A stretch of DNA of 64,000 nt from Chitinivibrionales bacterium (GTDB taxonomy: Bacteria; Fibrobacterota; Chitinivibrionia; Chitinivibrionales; WJKA01): assembly GCA_014728215.1 (NCBI GenBank), contig WJLZ01000133.1, positions 13,129 to 77,128 on the forward strand, written 5' to 3'. The position numbers and the translations under genes are program-made. Positions 22,143 to 63,133 of the stretch are shown one piece after another; position 1 is the stretch's first letter, and every line of letters begins with the position of its first letter. The notes under the pieces were generated by a model that saw nothing but the letters and a program-made list of their open reading frames with translations, had not been told where the DNA came from and ran no database searches.

Positions 22143-22551
22143 TTAAAAGATGAGGGATGCCTGTCGGTTCGTTTCCGAACCCTTCCCTCGTGCGCTCGTG
22201 ACCTCGTCCCCCAAATTGCCTCCCCCCCACACAACAATTATATTGATTTAGGCTAAGGCGCAGGAAGGCTCTCCAACCGAGGCTTGGGAGTGTTGGAAAA
22301 TCCGAACGCAAAAAAAAGATTTTCTGCCGGTGAAAACAGACAATTCCGTTGTGTAGGTCTCTTTTAGATAAGCCGCCGGCTTCGGCGGGGGCATCTCCGT
22401 TTTTATCCCGCCGAAAAAGAGTATTTATCACGGCAGACAACTACATATTTCTATCACCCGAACGCACTCCGGCGGGAGAGAATATACAATTTTTTGCCGC
22501 CGGCTTGTTTGCGTGCCGCATGGGCCGAGCCGGGCCTATATGGAGGAGTAT

Positions 22552-26450: not shown

Positions 26451-26489
26451 TTGCCGTTTAAGGAAATCAAAAGCTCCAGGACACCACCA

Positions 26490-29250: not shown

Positions 29251-30117
29251 TCACCCCTGCTCCCCGAGCGTAAAGAAAAACGTCGCCCCTTTCCCGACTT
29301 CGCTTTCTGCCCATATTTTGCCGCCATGCCGCTGAATAATTCGTCGTACAACGGCCAGGCCCAATCCGGTACCGGGATATTTAGCCTGCGAATGGAGCGT
29401 GTGGAACTGCTCGAATACTTTTTCGGCATGTTCGAGATCGAAACCCGCGCCGTTGTCTTTTACAAAATAGACGGTCTGGTTGTCTTCATGGTACATGCCG
29501 ATTTCGATTCGGGCATTCGGGGTGTTCCTGGTGTATTTCCAGGCGTTTTTGAGGAGATGTTCGAGTGCCTGGCGGGTCAGCTTGCTGTCTGCGGTTGCAG
29601 TCATGTTTTTTGCGATGACTACGTCTACGGTGCGTTCCGGATCTGTCTCTCTCAGTTCTGCGATGAAATCCTCGGCAATCACGCTCAGGTCAATTTTTTT
29701 CAGGCGCAACTCGCGTCGTACTACTTGAGACAGCTCCAGAAGCCCGGAAACCGTATCGGTAATGCGCGAGACATTCGATTTTATCAGGCGCAGGCACTTT
29801 TGACCGTCGGAATCCAGTACATTGCCGTAATGTTCTTCGAGCACACCGGCCATGGCGCCGATGTTGTTGAGCGGGTTGCGAAGCTCATGGGAAATGGATT
29901 GTGAAAAAGCTTCGAGTTCCGCTGCGCGGAGCTCTGCTGCTTTTCGCGCCTTCGCAAGCTGCTGCTCGACTTTACGCAACCGCACGACCGCGACACTCTG
30001 TTCGCCGACAATGGCGTCAACCTCATGCTTGCGCAGTGCCGAAACAAGCTCTTCAGCTTCGGCCAGGCGCTTTTCAAGTTCTTCGTAGGTAGGTTCCCGT
30101 TTGCTGTTAGCCATCAT
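29251..30117 (-). CDS. histidine kinase (coiled-coil N-terminus, HisKA + HATPase_c), third gene of the kai operon
   Basis: The ORF extends to 30165. The ATGs at 30117 and 30114 overlap the kaiB stop (sequence ATGATGGCTAA). H-box SHELRNPLNN. HATPase_c motifs HLLKNAWKY, DNGAGF and GTGLGLA. No PAS domain, transmembrane segment or KaiB-like domain. Confidence 0.85.
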   Translation of the reverse strand: MMANSKREPTYEELEKRLAEAEELVSALRKHEVDAIVGEQSVAVVRLRKVEQQLAKARKAAELRAAELEAFSQSISHELRNPLNNIGAMAGVLEEHYGNVLDSDGQKCLRLIKSNVSRITDTVSGLLELSQVVRRELRLKKIDLSVIAEDFIAELRETDPERTVDVVIAKNMTATADSKLTRQALEHLLKNAWKYTRNTPNARIEIGMYHEDNQTVYFVKDNGAGFDLEHAEKVFEQFHTLHSQAKYPGTGLGLAVVRRIIQRHGGKIWAESEVGKGATFFFTLGEQG

Positions 30118-30430
30118 CACCTTGTTCGATATTAAGTTGTTGCGCGATTGCATCTTTATCATCAAGGCTGCCGAAAAAAGTCATGCGCATTGCCGGGTCA
30201 TCGCAGGTGACAAGAAGGGTCGGCGTCACGACGATACGTTCCTTTAAGGCTGCCTCAAAATCTTTGTATACATCGATTACGTGTATGGTACATTGTTTGG
30301 TCGCTTTTCCCGAGCAAAGGTTATTGAGATTGTTGAGTGCGCGCAGAGAATTGGGCTCATCGCTGGCGACAAAGAGAACAAACCGGTAATGAGCTTTGCC
30401 GCCGGTATGGGTATCGGATGAAGGCATCAT
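30107..30430 (-). CDS. kaiB: circadian clock protein KaiB homolog
   Basis: 107 aa. The thioredoxin-like KaiB pattern is present: YRFVLFVASDEPNSLRALNNLNNLC...IHVIDVYKDFEAALKERIVVTPTLLV. Its start overlaps the kaiC stop (ATGA). Confidence 0.88.
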   Translation of the reverse strand: MMPSSDTHTGGKAHYRFVLFVASDEPNSLRALNNLNNLCSGKATKQCTIHVIDVYKDFEAALKERIVVTPTLLVTCDDPAMRMTFFGSLDDKDAIAQQLNIEQGDDG

Positions 30431-32139
30431 TGGCCTCCTTTCCGGGTGCGGCGGGAGCTGCGATTCTTCTGTAGCACTTTTTCTTCGCTATCTTTGCTTT
30501 TCCGCATAATTTCCCGTTGTTCACGGGCTTTGTCGAAAATGACGTCTTCACTTTTCAGATTTTCAAGCTCGACAATCGCTTTATCGATTCGGGCCTGCAA
30601 AGCCAGCCTTTCGGCTTTAGAGGACGCCTTCATGCGTTCGATTTCCTTCTTTTTGGCCTCAACCTCGTACTGCCGCTGACGTTCTTCCTGCTGCTCACGG
30701 ATCTCCTGCTCCTGACGGGCCACGCCGGTGAGCATGCCGCCTTTGCCGCTATAAATGTCGGCAAATCGTATACCGTCTGAAGTTATCATGAATTCCCGAA
30801 ACTGATTGGTATGCTGAGAACCTCTGGATTTCATGATCAGAATCGTGCGGTTCATTTCCCCGCCGATTGACGAATAGTTAAGATACACAATCGTATCGAT
30901 AATCGATGAATAGCCGATTCCGAAAATTTCGCCGATATTTTCTTTCCCGGTGATCTGGTTGGTAAGCAGAACGGTAATGCCTTTTCGGCGACAATGCGTG
31001 ACAAGCCGAAGCATGAAATAAAAAGCGGTTGCCTCGGAGCCCATTCGATCAAACGAGGAGACCGCATCTACAATTACATACCCTGGGTTATGGTCTTCAA
31101 TGGCATTCATCAGATTATCTAAATGGATTTCAGGAACGACGGCTTCCGGCATTTGCGAGAGGATTTTGAGCGAACCTTTTTGGATTACCGGCTCGAGATC
31201 GATTCCCGAGCTTTTCATCATGCCAACCATGTGCCCGGCCGATTCTTCATAGTTGACATACAACACCCGCTCGCCGTTCTCGCATGCATTGCGCGCAAAG
31301 GTATTGGAAATCGTGGTTTTGCCGGTTCCGGTGGCGCCGACAATAGCGGTGCACCCTCCTTTGGTATACCCGCCGCCCATCATGTGATCGAGTTCCTCAA
31401 AGCCGGTGGAGATATGGCCTGTTATCGGTGGATAGGACATTTCCAGATCTACCAAGGGATGAAAGACCAATCCCCGTTCGCTGATCGCGTAGGGGTTGGC
31501 GCCGCTGCTGAATCCGGAGCCGCGGCATTTGACAATCTGCAGCAGCCGTTGGTGCTCGGTGGTCTCCGCCCTCAGTCTGACAACACAATCGGTTAAAAAC
31601 TCCACAAAGGGGTAATAGGACTGTTCGCCGGCAAGCTTCATGGTGATCAGTGCGGTGAGTTTGTGATCTAAAAGCCAGTCGTGAAGCATAAAAATTTCGT
31701 TGCGTTCCCTCGCGGGGTTTTCAAGCAATTGCAGAAGAACATCGACTGCATCGATAACAATACGTTTTACATTCAGTTTCCGTATAAGGCCTTCAAGCAG
31801 GGCGAAGAGTCCCGCAAAGCTGAATTCCCCTGTGACGACTGCTCTGGGATCGAGCCGGGGATCAAGCACCGCAAGGCGTCCTTCCTTTTCGAGCTTCGCC
31901 AGATCCCATCCCAGAGTAAGCGCGTTACGCCTGAGTGCATCGGCGCGTTCTTCAAAGGAAATCAGTATGCCCGCCTCGCTATTCTGCGCGCCTTCAATCA
32001 GAAAATGCATGCCGATAATGGTTTTTCCGGTGCCGGTTTCGCCGTGGATAAGTGTTGTACGGCCGGAAGGATAACCACCGCGAAGTGCTGCATCCAGGCC
32101 GCCAATTCCAGAAGAGAGTTTTATGAGTTTTTGGGTCAT
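30427..32139 (-). CDS. kaiC: KaiC homolog with extended C-terminal coiled-coil tail
   Basis: 570 aa. Two RecA-like domains with Walker A motifs GETGTGKT and GATGTGKT, and catalytic EE pairs (SFEE, NYEE). The phosphosite-region equivalent is GYSSIIDTIV, against ISTITDTII in S. elongatus as I recall it. A charged heptad-rich tail of roughly 95 aa follows ITSDGI. Confidence 0.9.
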   Translation of the reverse strand: MTQKLIKLSSGIGGLDAALRGGYPSGRTTLIHGETGTGKTIIGMHFLIEGAQNSEAGILISFEERADALRRNALTLGWDLAKLEKEGRLAVLDPRLDPRAVVTGEFSFAGLFALLEGLIRKLNVKRIVIDAVDVLLQLLENPARERNEIFMLHDWLLDHKLTALITMKLAGEQSYYPFVEFLTDCVVRLRAETTEHQRLLQIVKCRGSGFSSGANPYAISERGLVFHPLVDLEMSYPPITGHISTGFEELDHMMGGGYTKGGCTAIVGATGTGKTTISNTFARNACENGERVLYVNYEESAGHMVGMMKSSGIDLEPVIQKGSLKILSQMPEAVVPEIHLDNLMNAIEDHNPGYVIVDAVSSFDRMGSEATAFYFMLRLVTHCRRKGITVLLTNQITGKENIGEIFGIGYSSIIDTIVYLNYSSIGGEMNRTILIMKSRGSQHTNQFREFMITSDGIRFADIYSGKGGMLTGVARQEQEIREQQEERQRQYEVEAKKKEIERMKASSKAERLALQARIDKAIVELENLKSEDVIFDKAREQREIMRKSKDSEEKVLQKNRSSRRTRKGGQ

Positions 32140-32344: not shown

Positions 32345-34309
32345 ATGGATAAAAGAAGGCATATTCGAAAACGATTATTTCCCACCCAGACATTACTGCG
32401 AGGCGCCATGTCCCCCGCACCTGAACAGTTCGGACGCTACAAAGTGGAGCGGCTTCTTGGTGAAGGCGCTATGGGAAGGGTCTATCTGGCGCAGGATCCG
32501 GTTCTGGGGCGTAATGTTGCGATCAAGGTGATTTCGATAGCGCCACTACTCAAAGGCGCCAATCGGGAAGAGTATCTTTGCCGTTTTTCGGTCGAAGCCA
32601 AAGCATCCGCTCAATTGAGCCATCAATCGATTGTTGCCGTATATGATGCCGGTGATGAGGAGGGGATACCCTGGATTGCCTTTCAGTATGTAGAAGGCCG
32701 GAGTCTCGAGGACCTGCTGAAGGAGGCTGGTTGTCTGCCGGTTGACCGGGCGCTGTCGATTGCCGGTGATATAGCGTCGGCTTTACGCACGGCACACCAC
32801 GACAAGATTATTCACCGCGACATAAAACCGGCCAATATTCTTATCGACAACACCACCGGTATTGCAAAACTTGCCGATTTTGGAGTTGCCAAGGCGCCCT
32901 GGGCTATGTTAACGCAGGAAGGCGCCACCCTCGGCTCGCCGGGATATATGTCGCCGGAGCAGGTTGACGGTGCGGAGCTTGACGAGCGCTCGGATATCTT
33001 TTCGCTCGGCGTGGTGATGTATGAAATGATCGCGGGAAAACACCCCTTTGCCCGGGAAACTGTTGCCGCGACCGTCTATGCAACACTTGGGGGATCATAT
33101 GTCCCTCTTCGAGAGCATGCACCGGATATTCCTGAAGACCTCGAGCAGGGAGTGGCCCGGTGCCTGACACCGGATAAGGAGCAGCGCCTGAAATCCGCTG
33201 ATGAACTTATGAGTCTGCTTCAAAATATCGATTGCACCGGAAAAGATAGGGTTGTAAAGTCTTCCTTGGCCGCAAAAAAAAAGTTTACGCAACAAAGCGA
33301 GCTGCCGAAGATTGTGATTCCGGTATCCGGGATAATGAAGTTTTTCGTTCGAATTGATGAATTGGTGCGCAGAAACCCAACGTTTAACAGGGTGATTGAC
33401 CGTTCGGCAGACCTGTTTGTCCGGCTCAAGCCGCATGCCGCGGTTGCAAAACGGCGATGCGGCAAAGTGTTCATGTCGGGATCCCGCAGGCTCACCCGAT
33501 TTATTGTCGCTCAATATAAAAAAACAGCCAAAGTGCTTGCCCACAACAGGCGGTTGCGCTATGCTTCTGTTGGAGTTTCTGCTGGAGCCGTTGTGGTTTT
33601 CGTCCTGCTGATGCTTTTATCTCCCGGCGAGGAATCGATTTCCGAATCCGGGATTTCAAAACTGCTGTCTTTTCCGGTTCCCGCACTCAGCAGCAACCAT
33701 CGGGATATAATTGACAGTTGTCTCGTTCTGATGAACCGGGGTGATTTCGATGAAGCAGAAGAAAAAGCGGCCGCTCTTATCAAAGAGAAAGGCGCTGCCG
33801 CGGCATACGGGTACCTGCTCCAGGGAAGAATCGAGCTTGAAGATGAGGAGTATTTTGCCGCAAAAGACGCCTTTGAAAAGGCACTGGAACTTCCCCACGG
33901 TAAACGTGTCCTGGACAAAGAACGGCATGCCCTTTTAGAACAGACAAAAAGGCTCCTGACCCGGGAACGAGCACCCGAATCTTTGGCGTCTCTGGCAACG
34001 CATACGCTTGAGCTCGCCGGATACGAAAAAGTGCAGAAGTGGGCGTATGAAAAACCGTACTGGCTTCGGTGGAACACGGTGAGAATTCTCGAGGCTGCGG
34101 GAAAGGATGTTGATATGGTGGAGGTGTACATTCTCGATATGAACCATGGAGGCAGCGCCCGGACGCGTATTCGGGCGGCGCGCAAACTGGGTGAGCTGGG
34201 CGACAAACGGGCAATACCCGCACTCAAGGAAGTCAAGGAAAAGGGCCTGCGGGACCCCTTCGTCGCAAATGTGGCGTCATCGGTACTGGAAAAGTATTTC
34301 GAGGAATAG
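32345..34309 (+). CDS. Hanks-type serine/threonine protein kinase with membrane anchor and TPR/HEAT-like C-terminal region
   Basis: 654 aa, with an alternative ATG at 32408. Kinase motifs GEGAMGRVY, VAIK, HRDIKPANIL, DFG and GSPGYMSPE. A hydrophobic segment (VGVSAGAVVVFVLLMLL). The C-terminal motif RIRAARKLGELGDKRAIPAL is HEAT (PBS-lyase)-like. Confidence 0.85.
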   Translation: MDKRRHIRKRLFPTQTLLRGAMSPAPEQFGRYKVERLLGEGAMGRVYLAQDPVLGRNVAIKVISIAPLLKGANREEYLCRFSVEAKASAQLSHQSIVAVYDAGDEEGIPWIAFQYVEGRSLEDLLKEAGCLPVDRALSIAGDIASALRTAHHDKIIHRDIKPANILIDNTTGIAKLADFGVAKAPWAMLTQEGATLGSPGYMSPEQVDGAELDERSDIFSLGVVMYEMIAGKHPFARETVAATVYATLGGSYVPLREHAPDIPEDLEQGVARCLTPDKEQRLKSADELMSLLQNIDCTGKDRVVKSSLAAKKKFTQQSELPKIVIPVSGIMKFFVRIDELVRRNPTFNRVIDRSADLFVRLKPHAAVAKRRCGKVFMSGSRRLTRFIVAQYKKTAKVLAHNRRLRYASVGVSAGAVVVFVLLMLLSPGEESISESGISKLLSFPVPALSSNHRDIIDSCLVLMNRGDFDEAEEKAAALIKEKGAAAAYGYLLQGRIELEDEEYFAAKDAFEKALELPHGKRVLDKERHALLEQTKRLLTRERAPESLASLATHTLELAGYEKVQKWAYEKPYWLRWNTVRILEAAGKDVDMVEVYILDMNHGGSARTRIRAARKLGELGDKRAIPALKEVKEKGLRDPFVANVASSVLEKYFEE

Positions 34310-53819: not shown

Positions 53820-54602
53820 ATGAAAGTTCTGACACATGGTTTAGCCGTAATCCTTACTGCAGCCATATTGCTTGCTTTAATATGGATGAAACTTCCCGGT
53901 GAAATAAATGCAATAATCGCCCGCCGTCAAATAAGTTCGCTGCGGCAGTGTGTCAGGCAGCAGCTCGAGCAGCAAAAAGAATCACTTGCAGATAAATTAA
54001 CCGCCTTTGCAGAAGTAACCGGATCGGACCGGGAATTTGCAATGAGGCTTCTTGTCGAAAATGACCCCTCGGCCGCCGAAGTCGTTGAAAGAGCAGAGCA
54101 GTTTATCCGGCCCATGGGACTCGAGATCCTCGAAATCACCGATTCTTTATTTGTGTTGATATCATCAGGACATTTTCCGGCAAGTGCAGGAAATTCAATT
54201 GCCGAAAAAATCACTCTTTTAGAAAGTGACCCTGCCTTTATAATGGATAATATTTTAGGTGAGGAAGCCTTAACCCTTCAGGCTAAAACCCGCTTTTCCA
54301 TTGCTGAACTTCCTTTTTATGTCGCCGGCGGGTTGATTGTCGATCAGGGGTTTCTCTCGATGCTTGTACCATCCAGTAATTCCTTCGTGCTGTTGAAATG
54401 GGAAGATGAAATCATCGGCGGCGAAAAACTGGGAAAAATTGAATCGATTTCAGAGATCGAAGACAATAAAATTATCGTGAATAACCGTACGTTTCTTGCC
54501 GATACCCTGTCACTTCAATTCAGCGGAGAAAATGCTTCACCTGTTTTACTCGTTCTGGCAGAGGAGCCGGAACCGGTTTCAATACTCTCTTTGTTCCAAT
54601 GA
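53820..54602 (+). CDS. hypothetical membrane-anchored protein resembling an orphan extracytoplasmic sensor domain
   Basis: 260 aa. A single N-terminal transmembrane segment (GLAVILTAAILLALIW) is followed by a mixed alpha/beta domain of roughly 230 aa. There is no second transmembrane segment and no output domain. I recognise no family. Confidence 0.45.
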   Translation: MKVLTHGLAVILTAAILLALIWMKLPGEINAIIARRQISSLRQCVRQQLEQQKESLADKLTAFAEVTGSDREFAMRLLVENDPSAAEVVERAEQFIRPMGLEILEITDSLFVLISSGHFPASAGNSIAEKITLLESDPAFIMDNILGEEALTLQAKTRFSIAELPFYVAGGLIVDQGFLSMLVPSSNSFVLLKWEDEIIGGEKLGKIESISEIEDNKIIVNNRTFLADTLSLQFSGENASPVLLVLAEEPEPVSILSLFQ

Positions 54603-54772: not shown

Positions 54773-54801
54773 TTGACTTTCATAACAATTTATGTTATAT
54801 T
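54773..54801 (+). promoter_or_regulatory. candidate promoter of the rex operon with an embedded palindrome
   Basis: TTGACT (54773-54778), a 17-nt spacer, then TATATT (54796-54801). The spacer/-10 region contains ATAACA-N5-TGTTAT (54782-54798). This is not a canonical Rex box. Confidence 0.3.
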
Positions 54802-54868
54802 TATATCATAAAACAGGAATTCAAAACAAAAAAAACAGGAATGACTCTGTGCAAATGGAGGCGAGATA

Positions 54869-55492
54869 ATGGCAAATCATGAATCATCCAGCATTCGGCT
54901 GCTTGAATATAAAAACATATTGAAAAAGCTGAAAGGTCTGGGTTTCAGTAAGGTGTTTTCCTCGAATCTTGCCGATACACTCGGAATTTCAGCATCATTG
55001 GTGCGAAAAGATTTTACGCAACTCACGACATCGGGAAACAAAAAGGGCGGCTATATAATTGATGATCTCCTTGGTGAGATAAACAGACTTTTAAACAAAG
55101 GGACAGAAACCGGTGCGGTAATTGTAGGGTTTGGAAAGCTCGGTAAAGCTTTATGTAATTACCGGGGGTTCATTGATGAAAATATCAGGTTTGTTGCGGC
55201 ATTCGATACGGATGAGTCGAAAATCGATCCTGATGCTGATGTGCCGGTGTTTCCTGCAGAAAAACTTGCGGAATTTGTGTCGACAAATAAAATAAAAATA
55301 GCTGTTTTGACTATTCCGGGTGACGTTGTTCAACGGACGGTGGATATTCTGGTAATAGCTGGTGTTAAGGGGTTTTTGAATTTTGTTCCGTTCAGGCTGG
55401 TATTGCCCGCTGATTGTTATGAAAATCACATTAATCTTGCAATGGAACTGGAGAAAGTAATTCTGCACATAACGAATGGTCACAAAGGATAG
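54869..55492 (+). CDS. rex: redox-sensing transcriptional repressor Rex
   Basis: 207 aa. Winged-helix N-terminus (RLLEYKNILKKL...FSSNLADTLGISASLVRKDF). Rossmann domain with VIVGFGKLGKAL. Confidence 0.88.
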   Translation: MANHESSSIRLLEYKNILKKLKGLGFSKVFSSNLADTLGISASLVRKDFTQLTTSGNKKGGYIIDDLLGEINRLLNKGTETGAVIVGFGKLGKALCNYRGFIDENIRFVAAFDTDESKIDPDADVPVFPAEKLAEFVSTNKIKIAVLTIPGDVVQRTVDILVIAGVKGFLNFVPFRLVLPADCYENHINLAMELEKVILHITNGHKG

Positions 55493-55506
55493 GATGGTGG
55501 TAGCAG

Positions 55507-57468
55507 ATGCTTCGTACTCGTTTATTTAAGTTTTTCGGTTTTCTGGCTTTGATTTTTGGTCTCCTGTATGCCTTTATTGGAGTGCAGGTTATCAGAAAGC
55601 AGGTAATTCAGCGCGCCGAAAATCAGGTGCGGTCGGACTTAAATGCAGCCTGGAGTGTTTTAAATGGCGAAATGAATACTATTGAAACGGTATTGAAGCT
55701 AATTGTCGACAACAGTGGTTTCAGAGAACAGTGCAGCGATGGTCAATTTGATGATGGTGAATTACGACGGCACCTTGAGGGGATACGCACGAGATTTAAT
55801 TTGGATTTTCTAAGTATCCTTACGCCGAATGGAAGGGTTGTACTTAGAAGTGCGCCTCCCTATAAAGTTGGAGATTATTTTCCGGCCGATGCTTTGATAC
55901 AGAAGGCATTAAAGGGGCAAGGCGTTGCCGGGGTTACGCTGTTTGATCCACAGACACTGGATCGGGAGTATGGGGATCTTTCCAGGAGAGCATTTCTGGA
56001 GTTTGAGGAAACACCATTTGCCCGCGGAAGCCGGAAGAATAACGAATCCAGGGGAATGGTTCTTATGAGCGCTGTGCCGGTTGTTTACAATAACAATGTT
56101 GTGGCGGCCGTGTATGGAGGCGTCATGATGAACCGTAACAAGAAAATTGTGGATAAAATTCATGAAACCATTTATCGCAATGAAAAATACAAAGGCACAT
56201 CGACCGGTTCGGTGACCATATTTCTCAATGACTGCAGGATAACGACAACTGTTCGAAAGGATAATGGAAACCGGGCATTGGGAACGCGTGTTTCGAAAGA
56301 GGTGGCTGAAAGCGTTCTTGACAATGGTGAGCCATGGCTCGGCAGGGCGTTTGTTGTAAAGGATTGGTATTTGACTGCCTATGATCCGATATATACGGTC
56401 AACAACAGGATTGTCGGCATGTTGTACGTTGGTATACTGGAACAGCCGTTTGTTGATATTGTCCGCATGATGATTGGCCGTTATGCACTCCTTTCTTTTG
56501 CCGGCCTTCTGGTGACACTTATTGCAGCCTATTTTCTCGCTGCCCGGGTCGCTAAACCAATTCATGCACTGGCCGAGGCGTCGCATACAATGCGTGAAGG
56601 TCAACATCCGGGACGCGTTGAATTTAAAAAATGTTCTACCGAGACTCGTACGCTTATCGATGCTTTTAACAATATGGCAGATAAGCTTGTAGAGAGGGAA
56701 CGCAAACTCAAAGAGGCCAATACATCGCTGGTTGCGGTTAATAAAAGTTACATGGAAACACTCGGCTTTATTTCCCATGAGCTGAAAACACCGTTGGGTT
56801 CCATTATGAATTACACATTTATGCTCGGAGAGGATAAATTCGGAGAGCTTAATGAAAAACAGAAACGGGCGGTAAAAAATATAGACCTTAACACAAAGCG
56901 AATTACCGAAATGGTACGGCATTATCTTAACTTGTCGAGAATAGAAAATAATGAGTTGAATCCTGTGCTCGCCGACGTGCGGATTAATGATGAAATCGTG
57001 GGGTCGCTGATAGAATTGATGAAATTGGCTGCCGAAGAGAAGAGTGTAACAATTCAAAACAATATTCCCGATGAATGTACGGTTCATGCGGACTACAATA
57101 TGACTCATGAAGTATTTGAAAATCTTATCAGCAATGCGATAAAATACGGCAATAAAGACGGATGCGTAACGATCGATTCTCAGATCAGCGATGCAGTGAT
57201 AGAATTCAGGGTTCGTAATACCGGTGATGGTATTCCTGAAGAGTATCGTAATACGATATTTGATAAATTTGTACGTGTCAATGGTATGGGGATGAAGAAA
57301 AAGGGAACCGGACTTGGTCTCTTTATAACACAGCATATAGTTAAGAGCCACGGAGGGACTATCTCTGTTAATTCCGAAGAGGGCAAATGGACTGAATTTG
57401 TTTTTACTTTGCCTGCAAGCAAAGAAAGGTTGAAAAGACATGAACAAAGAACCCTTGAAAATTGTTAA
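55507..57468 (+). CDS. sensor histidine kinase (Cache-like periplasmic domain, HAMP, HisKA, HATPase_c)
   Basis: 653 aa. Two transmembrane segments flank an extracytoplasmic domain of roughly 280 aa, followed by a HAMP-like linker. H-box SHELKTPLGS. HATPase_c motifs ISNAIKYG, RNTGDGI and GTGLGL. Confidence 0.85.
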   Translation: MLRTRLFKFFGFLALIFGLLYAFIGVQVIRKQVIQRAENQVRSDLNAAWSVLNGEMNTIETVLKLIVDNSGFREQCSDGQFDDGELRRHLEGIRTRFNLDFLSILTPNGRVVLRSAPPYKVGDYFPADALIQKALKGQGVAGVTLFDPQTLDREYGDLSRRAFLEFEETPFARGSRKNNESRGMVLMSAVPVVYNNNVVAAVYGGVMMNRNKKIVDKIHETIYRNEKYKGTSTGSVTIFLNDCRITTTVRKDNGNRALGTRVSKEVAESVLDNGEPWLGRAFVVKDWYLTAYDPIYTVNNRIVGMLYVGILEQPFVDIVRMMIGRYALLSFAGLLVTLIAAYFLAARVAKPIHALAEASHTMREGQHPGRVEFKKCSTETRTLIDAFNNMADKLVERERKLKEANTSLVAVNKSYMETLGFISHELKTPLGSIMNYTFMLGEDKFGELNEKQKRAVKNIDLNTKRITEMVRHYLNLSRIENNELNPVLADVRINDEIVGSLIELMKLAAEEKSVTIQNNIPDECTVHADYNMTHEVFENLISNAIKYGNKDGCVTIDSQISDAVIEFRVRNTGDGIPEEYRNTIFDKFVRVNGMGMKKKGTGLGLFITQHIVKSHGGTISVNSEEGKWTEFVFTLPASKERLKRHEQRTLENC

Positions 57469-59668
57469 AAACTTAAGAACCGAAGCTGTCTGGCGGGTGT
57501 TTGAAGCGAAGTTCAATACTGAATACAGGATAACCGTTGGTTCGGCAACCTGCGAAAATGCTGCCGGAGCCCGGGAGGTTTACGGTAAATTTCGGGAACT
57601 GGTACAGAATAACCCGGAAGCAAATGTAACAATGGGTCAGGTGGGGTGTACCGGAAGATGCGATATGGAACCTGTCGTTACTGTTATACGAAAAGGAATC
57701 GTGCCGGTAAAATATGTTCATTGTACTCCTCAAATGGCAGAGGAAATCTTTAAGGACCATATACTCGCTGACAAACCGATAGTAAAGTATACGATGCAGC
57801 ATGTTGATGGATTCAGTTCGACGCGCCGAATCATTGGCCTTTGCACGGGGAAGGCATGCGGTAATGAACGTGCCGACACACTGTTCACCTACTGCGCGGC
57901 TCGTATTGAAGCGGCGAATTTGAGTGAAGAATTAATGGTAACCAGGATGGATTGTCGTGGTAAATGCGACGCCGGACCGGTTATGCATGTTTATCCTGAT
58001 AATGTAATATACAGTGGCTTGACCAAAGAGATGATTGATCGTATTGTGGAAGAGCACTTGAAAAATGAAAAAATTGTGGCCGACTATGCAATGTCGATGG
58101 ATAAGATTTCGAATCGGTTTATACCCTTTTTCGGAAACATTCACTTTTTCGGAAAGCAGCTTCGAATGACTCTTCGGAATTGCGGTGTTATTGATCCTGA
58201 GGCGATTGATGAATATCTGTCGGTAAACGGATATGAAGCCGCGGCGCAGGCTCTGGCATCCGAAGATCCGGAAATGATCATAGAAAAGGTTAAATCGGCT
58301 GGTCTGAAGGGTCGTGGCGGCGGCGGGTTTTTAACCGCCCAGAAGTGGTCCTTTGCCGCAAAGCAGGATGCGGATGAAAAGTTTCTGATATGTAATGCCG
58401 ATGAAGGGGATCCCGGGGCCTTTATGGATCGAAGCACAATAGAAGGCGATCCTCACACGATTATTGAGGGGATGATAATTGCCGGGTATGCAATTGGAGC
58501 GACAAAAGGGTTTATTTACACCAGGGTTGAATATCCCCTGGCGATCAAACGACTTGAAATGGCGATTAAGAGTGCCCGAGAGTATGGTTTTCTGGGTAAA
58601 AACATTTTCGGCACCGGATGGGATTTTGATGTTGAAGTCCGTCTCGGTGCGGGAGCATTCGTGTGCGGGGAAGAGACGGCGCTTATAAAGTCGATTGAAG
58701 GATATCGTGGAGAACCCAAGCCGCGGCCGCCTTTCCCCACCGATAGAGGATTGTGGAATAAGCCGACGGTGATAAATAATGTTGAGACATTTGCCAATGT
58801 TCCAGTTGCACTTCTGGATGGTGAGAGCTGGTTTAATTCGATTGGGACGCCGCAAAGTAAGGGAACAAAGGTTTTTGCCCTGGCCGGTGCGGTCCGGCAT
58901 ACCGGGCTTATCGAGGTGCCGATGGGCACAACGCTTCATGAAGTAATCTACACGGTTGGTGGCGGAATACCGGAAAACAAAAAATTCAAAGCGGTTCAGA
59001 TCGGCGGTCCGGCAGGTGGGTGTCTTCCTGAATCCTTTCTCGAAACACCGGTCGATTACGATTCACTCAAACAGGCCGGGGCAATGATGGGCAGCGGGGG
59101 GATGATCGTTATGGATGAGAGCACCTGCATGGTGGATGTCGCCCGGTTTTTTCTCGAGTTTATGGCTGAAGAGTCGTGCGGACAGTGTACCCCCTGTCGA
59201 GCCGGGACTACTATCATGCTGGAAATTCTGGATTCGATTACAAAAGGAAAGGCCACTATGAGCGATCTTGATAAGCTTGAAGAGATCGCAAAGGTGACGG
59301 CAAACGCTTCGCTCTGTGGACTGGGTAAAGGTGCGCCTAATCCTGTACTCAGCACACTCAGCCATTTTCGCCATGAGTACGAAGAACACATCGTTAATAA
59401 GAGGTGCTCGGCAGGAGTATGTAAAAGCTTAACTTCCTATATCATCGATAGGGAGAAATGTGTCGGATGTACCGCCTGTGCCCGTGTCTGTCCTGTGAAG
59501 TGTATTGTCGGAGCGAAAAAGATGCCCCATGAGATAATCAATGAAATCTGCGTAAAATGCGGTAGTTGTTATGATATATGCAAATTCAATGCTGTACAAA
59601 AGGATGTTGGGCCTTTTGAAAAGGAGAATAAGACATGGAGAACTGTAAAACAAAAAATGACAGCGTAA
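57440..59668 (+). CDS. NuoF-like NAD(P)H-oxidising flavoprotein (HydB/HndC-type) with N-terminal thioredoxin-like domains and C-terminal 2x[4Fe-4S] ferredoxin domain
   Basis: 742 aa. Core motifs GLKGRGGGGF, NADEGDPGAF and ESCGQCTPCR. C-terminal ferredoxin motifs CVGCTACARVCP and CVKCGSCYDIC. Of the two N-terminal Trx-like modules, only the second keeps CxxxxC...CxxxC. The gene overlaps the kinase gene by 29 nt. Confidence 0.88.
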   Translation: MNKEPLKIVKNLRTEAVWRVFEAKFNTEYRITVGSATCENAAGAREVYGKFRELVQNNPEANVTMGQVGCTGRCDMEPVVTVIRKGIVPVKYVHCTPQMAEEIFKDHILADKPIVKYTMQHVDGFSSTRRIIGLCTGKACGNERADTLFTYCAARIEAANLSEELMVTRMDCRGKCDAGPVMHVYPDNVIYSGLTKEMIDRIVEEHLKNEKIVADYAMSMDKISNRFIPFFGNIHFFGKQLRMTLRNCGVIDPEAIDEYLSVNGYEAAAQALASEDPEMIIEKVKSAGLKGRGGGGFLTAQKWSFAAKQDADEKFLICNADEGDPGAFMDRSTIEGDPHTIIEGMIIAGYAIGATKGFIYTRVEYPLAIKRLEMAIKSAREYGFLGKNIFGTGWDFDVEVRLGAGAFVCGEETALIKSIEGYRGEPKPRPPFPTDRGLWNKPTVINNVETFANVPVALLDGESWFNSIGTPQSKGTKVFALAGAVRHTGLIEVPMGTTLHEVIYTVGGGIPENKKFKAVQIGGPAGGCLPESFLETPVDYDSLKQAGAMMGSGGMIVMDESTCMVDVARFFLEFMAEESCGQCTPCRAGTTIMLEILDSITKGKATMSDLDKLEEIAKVTANASLCGLGKGAPNPVLSTLSHFRHEYEEHIVNKRCSAGVCKSLTSYIIDREKCVGCTACARVCPVKCIVGAKKMPHEIINEICVKCGSCYDICKFNAVQKDVGPFEKENKTWRTVKQKMTA

Positions 59669-60153
59669 CACGTGCGGCGCTGCCGCGGAAGGTTGAGGAA
59701 TTCGTTCGTCAATGCTGTAACGAACTCCGGCCAAGAAGTTATCTCATACCGATACTCCATCAATTGCAGGAGGAAGAGGGATATCTGCGTGAAGATCAGA
59801 TGGCAACAGTCGCCTCCTTGCTTGGTGTTACCCTGTCGGAAGTAATGGGTGTTGCCACGTTCTATCACTATTTTACCCTGAAGCCGAAAGGGAAGCATAC
59901 GATTTCCATCTGTCTGGGGACGGCATGCCATGTGAAAGGTGCGGGAAAAATAGTGAAGAAGCTTGTGGATTTAATCGGAATCAAGGAGGGTGAAACCAGC
60001 AAGGATGACTTATTCTCCATCGAATCCGCCCGCTGCGTAGGAATGTGCGCACTTGCTCCGGTGATGATTATCGATGAGCGGGTATATGGCAATGTACAAC
60101 CGGATGAACTGGAAGAAATCCTCGGAGAATACGGGTTCAAAGGAGGCAGGTAA
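59635..60153 (+). CDS. NuoE-like [2Fe-2S] thioredoxin-fold protein (HydC/HndA-type)
   Basis: 172 aa. Motifs ICLGTACHVKGA and ESARCVGMCALAPV. The gene overlaps the NuoF-like gene by 34 nt, and AAGGAG lies 8 nt upstream of the ATG. Confidence 0.85.
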   Translation: MENCKTKNDSVTRAALPRKVEEFVRQCCNELRPRSYLIPILHQLQEEEGYLREDQMATVASLLGVTLSEVMGVATFYHYFTLKPKGKHTISICLGTACHVKGAGKIVKKLVDLIGIKEGETSKDDLFSIESARCVGMCALAPVMIIDERVYGNVQPDELEEILGEYGFKGGR

Positions 60154-60545
60154 TGGAGCCGAAGAAGAAGATAGTTCTTATCGATGATGATGAAGACTTC
60201 ATTGCTTCAGTGGCCGAACTTCTGGAAGCATTTGATTACGAGGTATTCTCGGCATTCAACGGTAGTGACGGTCTGGCGCTGGCGGTTAATGAGCGCCCCG
60301 ATTTAATTATTCTTGATGTTATGATGACCTATGAGACTGAAGGTTTTGATATTGCCCGTAAGATACGTACTAAACCCGAGTTGAAATCGACAAAGGTATT
60401 ACTGGTAAGCGGAATTGTGTCCGAAAAAAGACTGCCCTCATTATTAAAACCGGATGTACAATGGCTCCCTGTCGAAAGGATACTCGAAAAACCGATCGAA
60501 CCGTCAAAACTCATTGGTGAAGTTGAAAAATTGCTTGATGAATGA
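60153..60545 (+). CDS. response regulator, receiver domain only
   Basis: 130 aa. Acidic pocket DDD, phospho-acceptor context IILDVMM, LVSG, and EKP (Lys). The start shares one base with the NuoE-like stop (TAATG). Confidence 0.85.
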   Translation: MEPKKKIVLIDDDEDFIASVAELLEAFDYEVFSAFNGSDGLALAVNERPDLIILDVMMTYETEGFDIARKIRTKPELKSTKVLLVSGIVSEKRLPSLLKPDVQWLPVERILEKPIEPSKLIGEVEKLLDE

Positions 60546-60567
60546 TACATGTTATCTGGAGGTATAA

Positions 60568-61005
60568 ATGAAAGATGTAAATAAAACAATATTACTCGTA
60601 GATGATGATGTTGCGTTTGTTCATAGTGTTATAGACCTTCTTGAAGCTGAAGGCTACAGGATTCTGAGCGCCCATAATGGCACCGACGGAATGGCGCTGG
60701 CTAAAAAAGAAAAGCCGGATCTGGTTATGCTTGATGTGATGATGGATTATAACACCGAAGGGTTCGAGGTGAGTAGAGAGTTGAAAAAGCATTGCAGTTT
60801 AAATGCGGTCCCTGTTGTGCTGGTGACCGGGATCTGCCGTGAAATGAACCTCCCCTTTCGTTTTGAAGCTGATGACAAATTTCTTCCGGTAAATAAAATT
60901 GTCGAAAAGCCGGTTGCCCCAAAAAAGCTTTTGGAGCTTGTGGCTACATTACTTAACAACGATACACCCACACACCAACACACAAAAGGAGGTTGTCATG
61001 AATAA
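60568..61005 (+). CDS. response regulator, receiver domain only
   Basis: 145 aa. Motifs VDDD, VMLDVMM, LVTG and EKP. A paralog of the flanking receiver genes. Confidence 0.85.
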   Translation: MKDVNKTILLVDDDVAFVHSVIDLLEAEGYRILSAHNGTDGMALAKKEKPDLVMLDVMMDYNTEGFEVSRELKKHCSLNAVPVVLVTGICREMNLPFRFEADDKFLPVNKIVEKPVAPKKLLELVATLLNNDTPTHQHTKGGCHE

Positions 61006-61381
61006 AAAAGCTTTGGTTATTGATGATGATGCTGAATACAGAGCATCGGTGAAGGACCTGCTTGCCGCCAACGGTTACACGGTTGTGACTGCTGAAGACG
61101 GTCGGGTAGGGTATGAAGAAGCTGTTGCTCAGAAACCCGATGTAATCCTGCTCGATGTCATGATGGAAGACTGCAGTGCCGGACTCGATACGGTAAAGAA
61201 GCTTCGTGACGGAGCTGAAACTGCAAATATTCCGGTTATGCTGATCACGGGGATTCATAAAGGCAATTTTCTTCTCAGCAGCTATGCTCCTGACGAGAAG
61301 TTTCCAAATGTAAAAGGTGTTTATGAAAAGCCGGTCAAACCCGAAGAGCTGGTTGAAAATCTTACCAAAGTTGCCGCATAA
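60998..61381 (+). CDS. response regulator, receiver domain only
   Basis: The ORF track opens at 60899. The ATG at 60998 follows AAAGGAGG and gives MNKKALVIDDD. Motifs ILLDVMM, LITG and EKP. It overlaps the previous gene by 8 nt. Confidence 0.85.
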   Translation: MNKKALVIDDDAEYRASVKDLLAANGYTVVTAEDGRVGYEEAVAQKPDVILLDVMMEDCSAGLDTVKKLRDGAETANIPVMLITGIHKGNFLLSSYAPDEKFPNVKGVYEKPVKPEELVENLTKVAA

Positions 61382-61435
61382 TACCTTTTTAGAATGCGCC
61401 GGCCGGTAAACCGTATGGCAGTTTGAAAAGGCAAG

Positions 61436-61460
61436 GGGCCCTTATCGGGCCCTCCTTTTT
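61436..61460 (+). terminator. rho-independent terminator closing the rex-to-receiver operon
   Basis: GGGCCC (61436-61441) / GGGCCC (61447-61452) stem with a TTATC loop, followed by TCCTTTTT. Confidence 0.65.
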
Positions 61461-61745
61461 GACTCCTGGTGCGGCATACTGCCGGTGCATGGTCTACTCT
61501 CCGGCATACGCCTGAATGGCCGGATTTTCCTCGGCTGTAGAGCGCTGTACATTTTGGCGCTTGAGTTCCCTAATCCCTTTTTATCAATTCTGCACCCGCA
61601 ATATTCCGTTTCGCTTACCGAATTTTTTAGTAGAGAATCCGACTCGTGCTGTATGCAGAGAGAAGTTGCCGAAAGGGGCTGATTTTATAAGAGGCATATA
61701 TTATATTTGTTATATCATATTATAAATAAAAAAGCGGTCAACTCC

Positions 61746-62843
61746 GTGTACTTATCCCATCTTACTTTGCATAATTTCAGAAATTTTAAAGAACAGAGCT
61801 TAGAGTTTTCTCAGGACGGTGCTCTTTTCAGAGGGCTGAACGGTTCCGGCAAAACAAATTTGCTTGAAGCCATGCATGTTGTATGCACCGGCCGTTCTCA
61901 AAGGGCTGCTTCCCGCCGCAATATGATCAATTCATCGGCATCATGCTATTTCATCGAGGCAGGATTCAAGAATGCCGAATCGGGCAATGAAACCATTGCG
62001 TCGATGGGGTTCGGGCGGGACAGAAAATCAAGCATGAAAATTAACGATAAGAAGGTCTCATCATTTTCTGAGTGGTTCGGTATTGCCGGAATCGTCTCTT
62101 TTGGTCCCGACGATCTTAATTTAATCTACGGTCCACCCCATGAACGTCGGCGATTTGTCGATATCTTAATCAGCCAGCTTGTGCCCGGCTATCTCGGGCA
62201 TTGTGTTCACTATCGAAAAAGCCTGCTGAACCGGAATAAGCTTCTTGGAATGAAAATCTGCGACATGCAGCTTGACGCATATGAAGAAAAGATGGCCTTC
62301 CATGGGGCCGAACTCGCCGAAAAACGGAATGAAATAATCAGAAAGGTCGAATCGCAATTCACCGAATTCTACCGGCAAATCAGCCGGAATAAAGAGACAG
62401 GAACAATTAAGTTTCAACCTTCTTTTTCAAGTGAATTTAATAGTAAAAAAGAGTGGAAATATTTATTTTTAGAGGCACTGAAAAATACTCGAAAACAGGA
62501 TTGCAATCTTGGATACTCATCAATCGGGCCACACAGAGATGATGTGCGGATAACGATTGACGGTCGTCCGGCCAGAAACTTCGGCTCTCTGGGACAATGT
62601 CGATCACTTTCCCTTGCACTCCGCCTTTGCTCATACTACAGCCTTAAAGAGAATTCGGGTGATTCGATGATTCTGCTTGTGGATGATGTCTTTTCGGAAC
62701 TCGATGATCAGCGGCTTAAGCATTTCTATCCGCTTATCGAATCCGGTGGACAGCTCTTTGCAACAGCATCAACATCGCGGGTTCCCTTTTCAAAACCGAT
62801 TCATCCCTTCACAATATCGGATGGGAAGGTGTGTGCCGGATGA
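61746..62843 (+). CDS. recF: DNA replication and repair protein RecF
   Basis: The ORF opens at a TTG at 61707. The GTG at 61746 gives the typical (V)YLSHLTLHNFRNF start. Walker A GLNGSGKTNLLEA and a C-terminal LLVDDVFSELD motif. Confidence 0.88.
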   Translation: MYLSHLTLHNFRNFKEQSLEFSQDGALFRGLNGSGKTNLLEAMHVVCTGRSQRAASRRNMINSSASCYFIEAGFKNAESGNETIASMGFGRDRKSSMKINDKKVSSFSEWFGIAGIVSFGPDDLNLIYGPPHERRRFVDILISQLVPGYLGHCVHYRKSLLNRNKLLGMKICDMQLDAYEEKMAFHGAELAEKRNEIIRKVESQFTEFYRQISRNKETGTIKFQPSFSSEFNSKKEWKYLFLEALKNTRKQDCNLGYSSIGPHRDDVRITIDGRPARNFGSLGQCRSLSLALRLCSYYSLKENSGDSMILLVDDVFSELDDQRLKHFYPLIESGGQLFATASTSRVPFSKPIHPFTISDGKVCAG

Positions 62844-63133
62844 TGAGAAAAAGTAAGCCGGAGTCAATAACGCAAATCCTGAATTCGTTTTTATCCGAAC
62901 AAGGCTATCTAACCGCATGCAGAGAGTATGACGTTGTGCGCATGTGGCCCGAGATCGTAGGAGAAAAGATTGCAGAGAATACCCAATGCACAAGGGCTGA
63001 GGATGGTGTCTTGTATGTCCGTGTCCCCTCTGCAGCCTGGAGGCAGGAAATTAGCTATTTAAAAAAGGAGATCCTGGACAAAATCGAAGAAAAGTCCGGA
63101 TGCTCCTCAATAAAGGAAATAATATTTTATTAA
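62840..63133 (+). CDS. DUF721 (DciA-like) domain-containing protein
   Basis: The ATG at 62840 overlaps the recF stop (ATGA). The motif W..IVGE.IA..T.......G.L.V.V.S.AW..E....K..I is typical of the small gene found between recF and gyrB. Confidence 0.78.
   Translation: MMRKSKPESITQILNSFLSEQGYLTACREYDVVRMWPEIVGEKIAENTQCTRAEDGVLYVRVPSAAWRQEISYLKKEILDKIEEKSGCSSIKEIIFY

Follow-up and report, generated by a model that had tools for sequence, protein, structure and literature searches.

We propose that this stretch of 64,000 nt from a Chitinivibrionales bacterium (the window) carries a Rex-controlled BfuBC core whose catalytic subunit was lost from the locus, whose two-component regulatory kit was kept and whose partner acts in trans, a reading to which we give a probability of about 45%. 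We see the operon as an uncommon version of a known enzyme family, not proven to be a new signalling device. Among the roles offered in the preliminary description for its NuoF/NuoE-like pair, those of co-regulated module of a partner encoded elsewhere and of relay effector fit the data better, and that of redox input fits them less well.

Operon layout and the putative Rex operator

The open reading frames match exactly the coordinates described previously for the seven genes, and Pfam and NCBIfam agree with every gene assignment in the block. A promoter at 54773-54801 and a closing hairpin with T-run had also been proposed; both were found, the latter now at 61435-61463. The features are as follows.

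54773-54801, + strand: sigma-70-like promoter (TTGACT, 17 nt with extended TG, TATATT)
54793-54808, + strand: Rex-box-like palindrome TGTTATATTTATATCA, overlapping the -10
54869-55492, + strand: rex, redox-sensing repressor of 207 aa (ORF, Pfam, NCBIfam)
55507-57468, + strand: sensor histidine kinase (ORF, Pfam)
57440-59668, + strand: BfuB/HydB-type flavoprotein (NuoF-like), 742 aa (ORF, Pfam, solved relatives)
59635-60153, + strand: BfuC/HydC (NuoE/HoxE-like), 172 aa, [2Fe-2S] (Pfam, NCBIfam)
60153-60545, + strand: REC1, single-domain receiver (Pfam Response_reg)
60568-61005, + strand: REC2, single-domain receiver (Pfam Response_reg)
60998-61381, + strand: REC3, single-domain receiver (Pfam Response_reg)
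61435-61463, + strand: intrinsic-terminator-like hairpin and T-run (sequence)

The genes overlap (by ORF coordinates, 29 nt between the kinase and NuoF-like genes and 34 nt between the NuoF-like and NuoE-like genes) or sit at most 22 nt apart. Every gene start is preceded by a Shine-Dalgarno-like purine run, which reads AGGAGG 5' of BfuC, REC1, REC2 and REC3, and one promoter/operator and one terminator enclose the block. We call A-type this partner-less arrangement of Rex, Cache kinase, NuoF-like protein, NuoE-like protein and three receivers. Six more loci, whose flanks are unrelated, have the identical order of seven genes, making seven distinct loci with 35–40% amino acid divergence. The earlier view of the block as a single compact and conserved unit that lacks a catalytic gene in cis is supported, as is an evolutionarily conserved link between NuoFE and the kinase and receivers.

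Rex scores 192 bits with the NCBIfam equivalog model NF003996 (cut-off 138), shows the Pfam domains Put_DNA-bind_N and CoA_binding (winged helix and Rossmann) with a GFGKLG motif, and is 54–61% identical across the other A-type loci. Upstream of rex by 45–95 nt, the pattern TGTTAT-N4-ATAACA was present with 0–2 mismatches in 6/6 A-type loci with upstream sequence and overlaps the -10 in each of these promoters, and a TTGACA-like -35 lies 5' of it in the other A-type loci as well; at no more than one mismatch, the window holds two matches against 0.10 expected. The published Rex consensus is TTGTGAA/TTGTTAA-N4, and similarity to it suggests that the palindrome at 54793-54808 is the Rex operator. 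A rise in NADH/NAD+ would remove Rex from this site over the -10 and allow expression of the operon.

The flavoprotein core and the absent catalytic subunit

Judged by its sequence, the pair formed by the NuoF- and NuoE-like proteins is a genuine electron-bifurcation core of the BfuB/BfuC (HydB/HydC) type, with every cofactor ligand that the Bfu-core definition of PMC9304861 asks for. BfuB comprises two N-terminal thioredoxin-like 2Fe-2S domains, the FMN/NADH site, the [4Fe-4S] cluster B1, the B2 site and a C-terminal 2x[4Fe-4S] domain, with Pfam matches to Complex1_51K (4e-45) and NADH_4Fe-4S (8e-35) and GRGGGGF at residues 291–297. In the alignment, the B1 ligands C580, C583, C586 and C626 are conserved. 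The B2 site C563/T601/H650/C656/C661, equivalent to C438/C476/H525/C531/C536 of 7t2r_B, keeps the signature His and has Thr at its second position, like FeFe enzymes, and the B3/B4 ligands of the C-terminal domain (C674–C714) are invariant. The N-terminal [2Fe-2S] ligands of B5 (C135/C140/C172/C176) are present in the window protein and lost in P0004-P0009. The cofactor motifs first noticed in the NuoF-like protein are all intact, with the correction that the second ferredoxin motif is CxxCxxCxxxCK and does not end in CP. To that account we add the pair of thioredoxin-like [2Fe-2S] domains at the N-terminus. The GenBank entry MBD3345581.1 (624 aa) begins 118 codons late, and homologs align from residue 4–5.

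The closest solved relatives of BfuB are bifurcating BfuB subunits, 7t2r_B (4.8e-222) and 7q4v_B. Assignment to respiratory complex I NuoF was rejected, as TIGR01959 reached 492.6, short of its cut-off of 558.65, and no other NuoF model passed either. BfuC gave a full-length match to Pfam 2Fe-2S_thioredx (1e-48), and its CLGTAC and CVGMC motifs (C1 [2Fe-2S]) uphold the statement that the NuoE-like cysteines are kept; its best NCBIfam E-value is to HoxE, and it narrowly exceeds the threshold of the NuoE model NF005722.

The reported lack of a HydA, formate dehydrogenase, NuoG or other Nuo partner in the 64 kb agrees with our six-frame motif scan and Pfam scans, which were empty. Across all 64 kb, read in six frames, motifs of the H-cluster and of [NiFe] large subunits had no valid match, nor had the HydA motifs TSCCP and MPCxxK; the single CxxGCxxGGG-type match (34096-34125) is interrupted by a stop codon. 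Pfam revealed no hydrogenase, formate dehydrogenase, NuoG or other Nuo gene among the approximately 35 other ORFs of at least 150 aa in the window, and motif and Pfam scans detected no HoxU/BfuA, HoxY or HoxH gene there. No BfuA or other third-substrate module was found in the operon, the 64 kb or the six sister loci, and no HoxH or HydA could be linked to the MAG of the window. The lack of a nearby partner gene in 7/7 loci is unusual for the subunits of one complex; both points speak against the preferred reading of a partner in trans.

Since every close outgroup has hydA placed between hydB and hydC, its absence could point to a decayed, non-functional remnant of a hydrogenase operon, or the genes might be independent neighbours. 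We regard either as very improbable: the reading frames are intact with every cofactor ligand kept, and dN/dS is 0.12–0.28 across all genes tested (for an A-A pair, 0.18 in BfuB and 0.27 in BfuC, equal to the A-B pairs, with dS near saturation). The same gene order in seven contexts, the tight spacing, the Shine-Dalgarno site of each gene and the single set of transcription signals also argue against both.

Relatives of the locus and its two-component genes

The BfuB clade of the window has 100% bootstrap support, and its sister group consists of about 110 HydB proteins. The three sister loci that were read (L003, L005 and L007) are (Rex-)HydB-HydA-HydC(-REC) operons, and the outgroups L006 and L014 are [FeFe] operons. 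The pair is joined to hydA in these five loci as well as in L033 and L034, and to hoxUYH in L027, a member of the same clade with a BfuBC-HoxU-HoxY-HoxH [NiFe] operon and orthologous kinase and receivers. The preliminary description had asked whether, in relatives, the pair adjoins catalytic genes while the signalling genes drop out; hydA or hoxUYH do adjoin it, but kinase and/or receivers are kept in several of these loci.

The kinase consists of TM1 (5–31), a periplasmic sCache_3 domain, TM2 (318–352), HAMP, HisKA and HATPase_c, with both the HisKA H-box and HATPase_c present. Its orthologs are 54–59% identical in the A-type loci and 47% in the [NiFe] locus L027, and score 632 bits in L034 and 342 bits in L006, both [FeFe]. 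D11, D12, D55 and K113 are invariant among 26 receivers, and S/T86 is conserved. The REC1 orthogroup is common to L027 and L034, and REC2 resembles the lone receiver of HydB-A-C-REC operons (51% to L003, 50% to L006). The REC3 orthogroup (R3 clade, 100% bootstrap) is restricted to A-type loci, and in L028 is fused to REC2. The conserved co-operonic placement suggests phosphotransfer from the kinase to the receivers, whose putative targets are suggested by gene neighbourhood: the receiver subfamily adjoins NuoE/F-containing enzymes in 8/17 high-scoring loci versus 1/63 low-scoring ones (p=6.7e-6). One of these enzymes is an Fdh.

Orthologous kinase and receivers also occur inside complete hydrogenase operons ([NiFe] L027; [FeFe] L006, L034 and L033), and neither they nor Rex are peculiar to the partner-less version; the kit is therefore best seen as inherited together with complete NAD-linked hydrogenases, and not as built around a partner-less flavoprotein. 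Together with the receiver enrichment beside NuoE/F enzymes, this indicates that the flavoprotein is most likely the regulated enzyme module rather than the sensor of the kinase. The reverse, which we consider unlikely, is that BfuBC has lost its catalytic role and reports the NADH/ferredoxin state to the kinase or receivers, by analogy with the regulatory hydrogenase HoxBC signalling to HoxJ. The kinase stop overlapping the bfuB start in all A-type loci, the three receivers with a REC3 specific to partner-less loci, and the absence of a catalytic gene in cis would be consistent with such an input. However, kinase and receivers also accompany complete hydrogenases, in which BfuBC clearly serves as a subunit of the enzyme, and L006 already has the kinase gene ahead of hydB. 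That the kinase brings a periplasmic Cache sensor of its own argues against NuoFE as its input, NADH sensing is already done by Rex, and all the bifurcation cofactors are kept, under a constraint equal to that in enzyme-linked relatives.

A possible partner in trans and comparison with known systems

Under the preferred reading, the core would descend from HydB-HydA-HydC-type operons that lost the catalytic/BfuA subunit, with the Cache kinase and single-domain receivers, expanded to three, still co-transcribed. BfuBC would act as an FMN/multi-FeS flavoprotein exchanging electrons with NAD(H) and ferredoxin, and the electrons would leave through the B1 cluster for a partner whose genes lie elsewhere. 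The best candidate would be an [NiFe] module of SH type, HoxU-HoxY-HoxH, because two sister loci come from genomes that have one and it adjoins the core in L027. Two genomes with an A-type operon hold a complete Rex-HoxFUYH hydrogenase elsewhere (L029 and L031 share assemblies with the A-type loci L004 and L032). A hydrogenase partner acting in trans is therefore possible, but these Hox operons include their own HoxF diaphorase and so have no need of BfuBC, a point against the preferred reading. HoxU/Y/H of L027 are 50–76% identical to those of L029-L031, and the lower conservation of HoxU (50–58%, versus 73–76% for HoxY/H) could reflect a different docking surface. An extracytoplasmic cue would lead, through the kinase, to phosphorylation of the receivers, which lack an output domain and so would work through direct contact with the NuoE/F-type module or with Rex.

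It is possible, although rather unlikely, that the operon encodes instead a stand-alone enzyme without a hydrogenase partner, regulated by Rex and the two-component genes, such as a soluble ferredoxin:NAD+ oxidoreductase/diaphorase or an enzyme for an unrecognised third substrate. BfuA-less Bfu cores are already known as 'Type 4' (Schut et al. 2022, PMC9304861), and clade 57 offers a precedent, with 47 members that have BfuBC only and for many of which the third substrate is unknown (PMC9304861). The lack of a partner gene in cis in 7/7 loci, the age of the arrangement under purifying selection and the self-sufficient Hox enzymes agree with this. Against it, electron transfer from NADH to ferredoxin is uphill without a third acceptor, and transfer from ferredoxin to NAD+ would duplicate Rnf, reported in cultured Chitinivibrionia (PMC4814513), without energy conservation. 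In addition, the B1 exit towards BfuA is fully conserved, and a catalytic module is re-attached in L027.

A broader reading, tentative and unlikely, is that the receivers are phosphorylation-dependent partners of NuoE/NuoF diaphorase modules, a hitherto undescribed post-translational layer on bifurcating/NAD-linked hydrogenases and formate dehydrogenases. The Chitinivibrionales version would be a hydrogenase-free, self-contained device in which BfuBC, kinase and three receivers form a redox/phospho-signalling system or gated electron valve. We found no published description of two-component wiring on BfuA-less cores. If the receivers do act on the core, this would be the first sign of two-component phosphorylation switching flavin-based bifurcating enzymes, which would be governed beyond transcription alone. 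If the core docks onto SH-type HoxUYH in trans, an NAD-only diaphorase could be swapped for a bifurcating one using NAD and ferredoxin, with the same catalytic unit serving both.

H2-sensing systems include the HoxBC-HoxJ-HoxA regulatory hydrogenase and group C [FeFe] HydS with kinase/PAS domains. The operon resembles them in placing a redox metalloprotein with histidine-kinase genes near hydrogenase genes, but the window lacks a sensor subunit resembling a hydrogenase, the kinase uses a periplasmic Cache domain for sensing, and the outputs are receivers only, with no DNA-binding regulator; HydS-kinase fusions appeared only in the distant loci L010, L012, L018 and L024. In the Rex regulons of fermentative bacteria, genes for hydrogenase and for NADH-consuming fermentation are repressed when NADH/NAD+ is low. 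Here a rex equivalog is the first gene and a Rex-box-type palindrome covers the -10, although the half-site of this putative operator is TGTTAT and not TGTGAA/TGTTAA.

The HydABC [FeFe] enzymes (T. maritima 7p5h, A. woodii 7q4v) share HydB/HydC homologs (E = 1e-190 to 1e-218), and among the operons read, those of the closest sisters and outgroups are HydB-HydA-HydC, in many cases with Rex, whereas HydA with its H-cluster is absent here from the operon and the 64 kb. In the comparison with SH-type HoxFUYH (5xf9) and with NiFe-HydABCSL of Acetomicrobium mobile (7t2r), the latter supplies the best solved relative of BfuB, and L027 couples BfuBC to HoxU/Y/H; HoxU/Y/H genes are absent here, and L027 differs from A. 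mobile in having a short SH-type HoxU of 240 aa in place of the 692-aa BfuA. Type 4 Bfu shares a BfuB with FMN, B1–B5 ligands and the signature His, a BfuC with [2Fe-2S] and no adjacent BfuA. The described example has rubrerythrin downstream, whereas here the core shares its operon only with Rex, kinase and three receivers, and its BfuB carries an extra N-terminal thioredoxin-like domain. The operon is a specific and conserved instance of a Bfu core without BfuA.

Layout and surroundings of the operon

An ORF check placed the seven genes on the plus strand at coordinates identical to those of the preliminary description, and a purine-rich ribosome-binding site is found at the start of each. 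The candidate promoter and the hairpin with a T-run, proposed to open and close the block, were both recovered.

Features of the operon block (window coordinates)
54773-54801, plus strand: promoter-like TTGACT-17-TATATT, 5' end of the block
54869-55492, plus strand: rex, first gene of the block
55507-57468, plus strand: histidine kinase, 14-nt gap after rex
57440-59668, plus strand: NuoF-like gene (BfuB), 29-nt overlap with the kinase gene
59635-60153, plus strand: NuoE-like gene (BfuC), 34-nt overlap with the NuoF-like gene
60153-60545, plus strand: receiver REC1, 1-nt TAATG overlap with the NuoE-like gene
60568-61005, plus strand: receiver REC2, 22-nt gap after REC1
60998-61381, plus strand: receiver REC3, 8-nt overlap with REC2
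61435-61463, plus strand: GC hairpin and T-run, 3' end of the block

The NuoF-like protein corresponds to GenBank MBD3345581.1 (Chitinivibrionales MAG, 141-kb contig), whose start is annotated 118 codons too far downstream. All frames of the 64-kb window are free of H-cluster and [NiFe] motifs, and a Pfam scan of its other large ORFs detected neither a hydrogenase or formate dehydrogenase gene nor NuoG or any Nuo gene; the proposed absence of a HydA, Fdh, NuoG or Nuo partner from the 64 kb holds.

Directly upstream, on the same strand, lies a gene for a 260-aa membrane-anchored protein without a Pfam match (53820-54602), which is not kept beside the operon in other loci. Immediately 3' come recF and then a DciA-family gene (61707-63133), which suggests that the operon could be close to the origin of replication, though in this genome alone. 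Antisense ORFs in the kinase gene (535 aa, 55909-57516, minus strand) and in bfuB were rejected as shadow ORFs, being 22-35% identical across loci versus 47-65% for the sense frames, which their weak conservation mirrors. Elsewhere in the window, at 29251-32139 on the minus strand, genes for a KaiC-family ATPase (570 aa) and a short HisKA/HATPase kinase adjoin each other; nearby genes encode a PAS kinase (26451-28142) and, at 22513-25494, a CheB-CheR-PAS fusion.

The flavoprotein core and its relatives

The NuoF-like protein scores below every NuoF equivalog cut-off in NCBIfam and does not belong to complex I. Its closest solved relative is the B subunit of A. mobile NiFe-HydABCSL (7t2r_B, 4.8e-222), and A. 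woodii HydB, NfnB and T. maritima HydB, all B subunits of bifurcating enzymes, are also among the top matches. Schut et al. (PMC9304861) define the BfuBC core, the HydB/HydC-type core of electron-bifurcating enzymes, by a set of cofactor ligands. All of them are present here, and the cofactor motifs are complete, as previously described.

Cofactor ligands of the window's BfuB
B1: C580/583/586/626
B2, with the bifurcation-signature His: C563/T601/H650/C656/C661
B3/B4: C674-C714
B5: C135/140/172/176

BfuB carries an additional N-terminal Trx-like domain (residues 1-125; 57440-57814) with invariant C38/C70/C74/H107, and the entire 720-aa HydB family shares this domain. These residues may form a Cys3His [2Fe-2S] site missing from solved BfuB structures, and the domain may replace B5 in the subclade without B5 cysteines. 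Pfam and NCBIfam matches identify the NuoE-like protein as a full-length [2Fe-2S] subunit of the HydC/HoxE type.

Neighbour-joining trees were built from the flavoprotein's 120 best homologs and the fetched loci, the MAGs compared being incomplete. The window's protein groups with P0002-P0009, P0086 and P0098 (100% bootstrap). The order Rex-kinase-BfuB-BfuC-REC-REC-REC, here called A-type, occurs in seven distinct loci within this group (the window, L001/2, L004, L025, L026, L028 and L032), whose flanks are unrelated, the seven genes alone being common to them. Every gene tested has a dN/dS of 0.12-0.28, with dS near saturation, and these genes are under purifying selection; that the operon is a dead remnant is highly improbable.

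The sister clade (about 110 proteins, 100% support) contains, in the three loci read (L003, L005, L007), [FeFe]-hydrogenase operons of the form (Rex-)HydB-HydA-HydC(-REC). Two outgroup [FeFe] operons read kinase-2Fe2S-HydB-HydA-HydC-REC (L006) and Rex-HydB-HydA-HydC (L014). In these five loci, unlike the seven A-type ones, hydA adjoins the pair, and L006 has a kinase and a receiver as well.

Inside the window's clade, a subclade holds the B-type locus L027 (7826-17436), with the order BfuB-BfuC-HoxU-HoxY-HoxH-HoxW-Rex-kinase-REC-REC, the kinase being a Cache kinase. A second B-type member probably exists, since P0008 and P0124 come from contigs of equal length (8478 bp). The L027 HoxU is of the short SH type (240 aa, best match 5xf9_B), and this hybrid operon is a plausible candidate for a bifurcating [NiFe]-hydrogenase. 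Some A-type loci keep the B5 cysteines, whereas others, like the B-type, have lost them. On parsimony, the A-type would therefore be ancestral in the clade and the [NiFe] attachment derived, with weak bootstrap values inside the clade.

Rex, kinase and receivers

The Rex protein scores above the cut-off of an NCBIfam Rex equivalog model. The canonical boxes TTGTGA-N6-TCACAA and TTGTTA-N6-TAACAA gave chance-level matches only, none upstream of rex. Comparison of the upstream regions of the loci yielded a 16-bp palindrome, TGTTAT-N4-ATAACA, directly after a TTGACA-like -35 element and overlapping the -10, in all six A-type loci with upstream sequence (54793-54808 in the window). The window has 2 matches at ≤1 mismatch versus 0.10 expected, and the palindrome's form agrees with the consensus of published Rex boxes. 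The B-type promoter carries TTGTGAAAAGAATCACA. Another Rex-box-like palindrome, TGTTATGAAAATCACA (55415-55430, 3' end of rex, also in L026), is not claimed as a site; it falls in the conserved CYENH coding sequence and may be an internal operator or merely conserved codons.

In the kinase, two TM helices (5-31 and 318-352) flank an sCache_3 domain, so the sensor is periplasmic; HAMP, HisKA and HATPase follow. The kinase's ortholog in L027 is 47% identical, and those in L034 and L006 score 632 and 342 bits. REC1-3 all have an intact acidic pocket as well as the phospho-acceptor Asp and the Ser/Thr and Lys residues, and lack an output domain; the signature of this receiver-only subfamily is LDVMM..TEGF..[ST]GI..LPV..EKP. 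Its members are found after HydC or HydA (L003, L006, L033, L034, L020), before NuoE (L010, L012, L018, L024, L047), after HoxH/W (L042, L043, L049) and, together with a kinase, ahead of a NuoG-Mo formate dehydrogenase plus NuoEF fusion (L037). Among the receiver loci of a metagenome sample, NuoE/F-containing enzymes adjoined 8 of the 17 that scored high versus 1 of the 63 that scored low (Fisher p=6.7e-6). The NuoE/NuoF-containing enzymes beside which the subfamily is enriched comprise both [FeFe] and [NiFe] hydrogenases and a single formate dehydrogenase; receiver genes of this kind lie in L003, L006, L020, L033, L034, L037, L042, L043, L047 and L049. What the receivers share as a neighbour is the NuoE/F module rather than any one catalytic subunit, and kinase and receivers are not peculiar to the partner-less version.

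The REC3 orthogroup was encountered in A-type loci alone (100% bootstrap). One of these encodes a 271-aa fused REC2 and REC3 (L028:5671-6486), which hints that the two act jointly. No natural receiver-NuoE/NuoF fusion was found among the 5 Pfam-scanned proteins of the 150 top representatives listed (1.8 billion searched); what turned up were multi-receiver proteins and, as the sole fusion to a non-receiver domain among those 5, the REC-CBS protein P0414, in which a receiver of this type is joined to an adenine-nucleotide-binding CBS pair.

The preliminary description had offered, as its novel option, that BfuBC is the redox-sensor input to the adjoining relay. This loses ground: the kinase possesses a periplasmic Cache domain of its own, an identical kit accompanies complete enzymes, and the cofactor set remains equally constrained. 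We regard it as unlikely.

Possible partners and comparison with known enzymes

The flavoprotein is best understood as the enzyme module under regulation, from a line of hydrogenases whose locus lost the catalytic gene; Rex and the hydrogenase-associated two-component kit would have come down together with the flavoprotein core. Statements on function that go further than sequence, context and phylogeny are inferred. A complete Rex-HoxF-HoxU-HoxY-HoxH-HoxW operon (L029, L031) lies on other contigs of two A-type MAGs, GCA_014728295.1 (L004) and GCA_014729845.1 (L032). Its HoxU, HoxY and HoxH are 50-58%, 73-76% and 73-74% identical to those following BfuBC in L027, and its HoxF (best match 5xf9_A) is of the non-bifurcating SH type. 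Because these MAGs hold a Hox operon with its own HoxF, a partnership in trans is possible yet not required. Searches for HoxH gave Chitinivibrionales matches in two A-type MAGs and for HydA one, from an unrelated project; none was assignable to the window's MAG, which is weak evidence. Taken as a whole, a regulated BfuBC module, most likely with a partner in trans and HoxUYH-type as the best candidate, has a probability of about 0.45.

BfuBC cores without BfuA, the subunit joining the core to the third substrate, are already on record as Type 4 (clade 57), for many of whose 47 members the third substrate is unknown (PMC9304861), so the lack of a catalytic partner is not new by itself. That the operon encodes a stand-alone enzyme of this Type-4-like kind is rather doubtful. 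The literature searched, with incomplete coverage, offered no description of kinase, receiver or Rex genes in Bfu/HydABC operons, a silence that is weak evidence of novelty. Since the searchable papers omit these genes, the conserved Rex-kinase-BfuBC-triple-receiver operon and the wider receiver/NuoEF association appear new, as variants within a kind of enzyme already known. The candidate hydrogenase of L027 is also built unlike the solved A. mobile enzyme, with a HoxU of 240 aa versus a BfuA of 692 aa.
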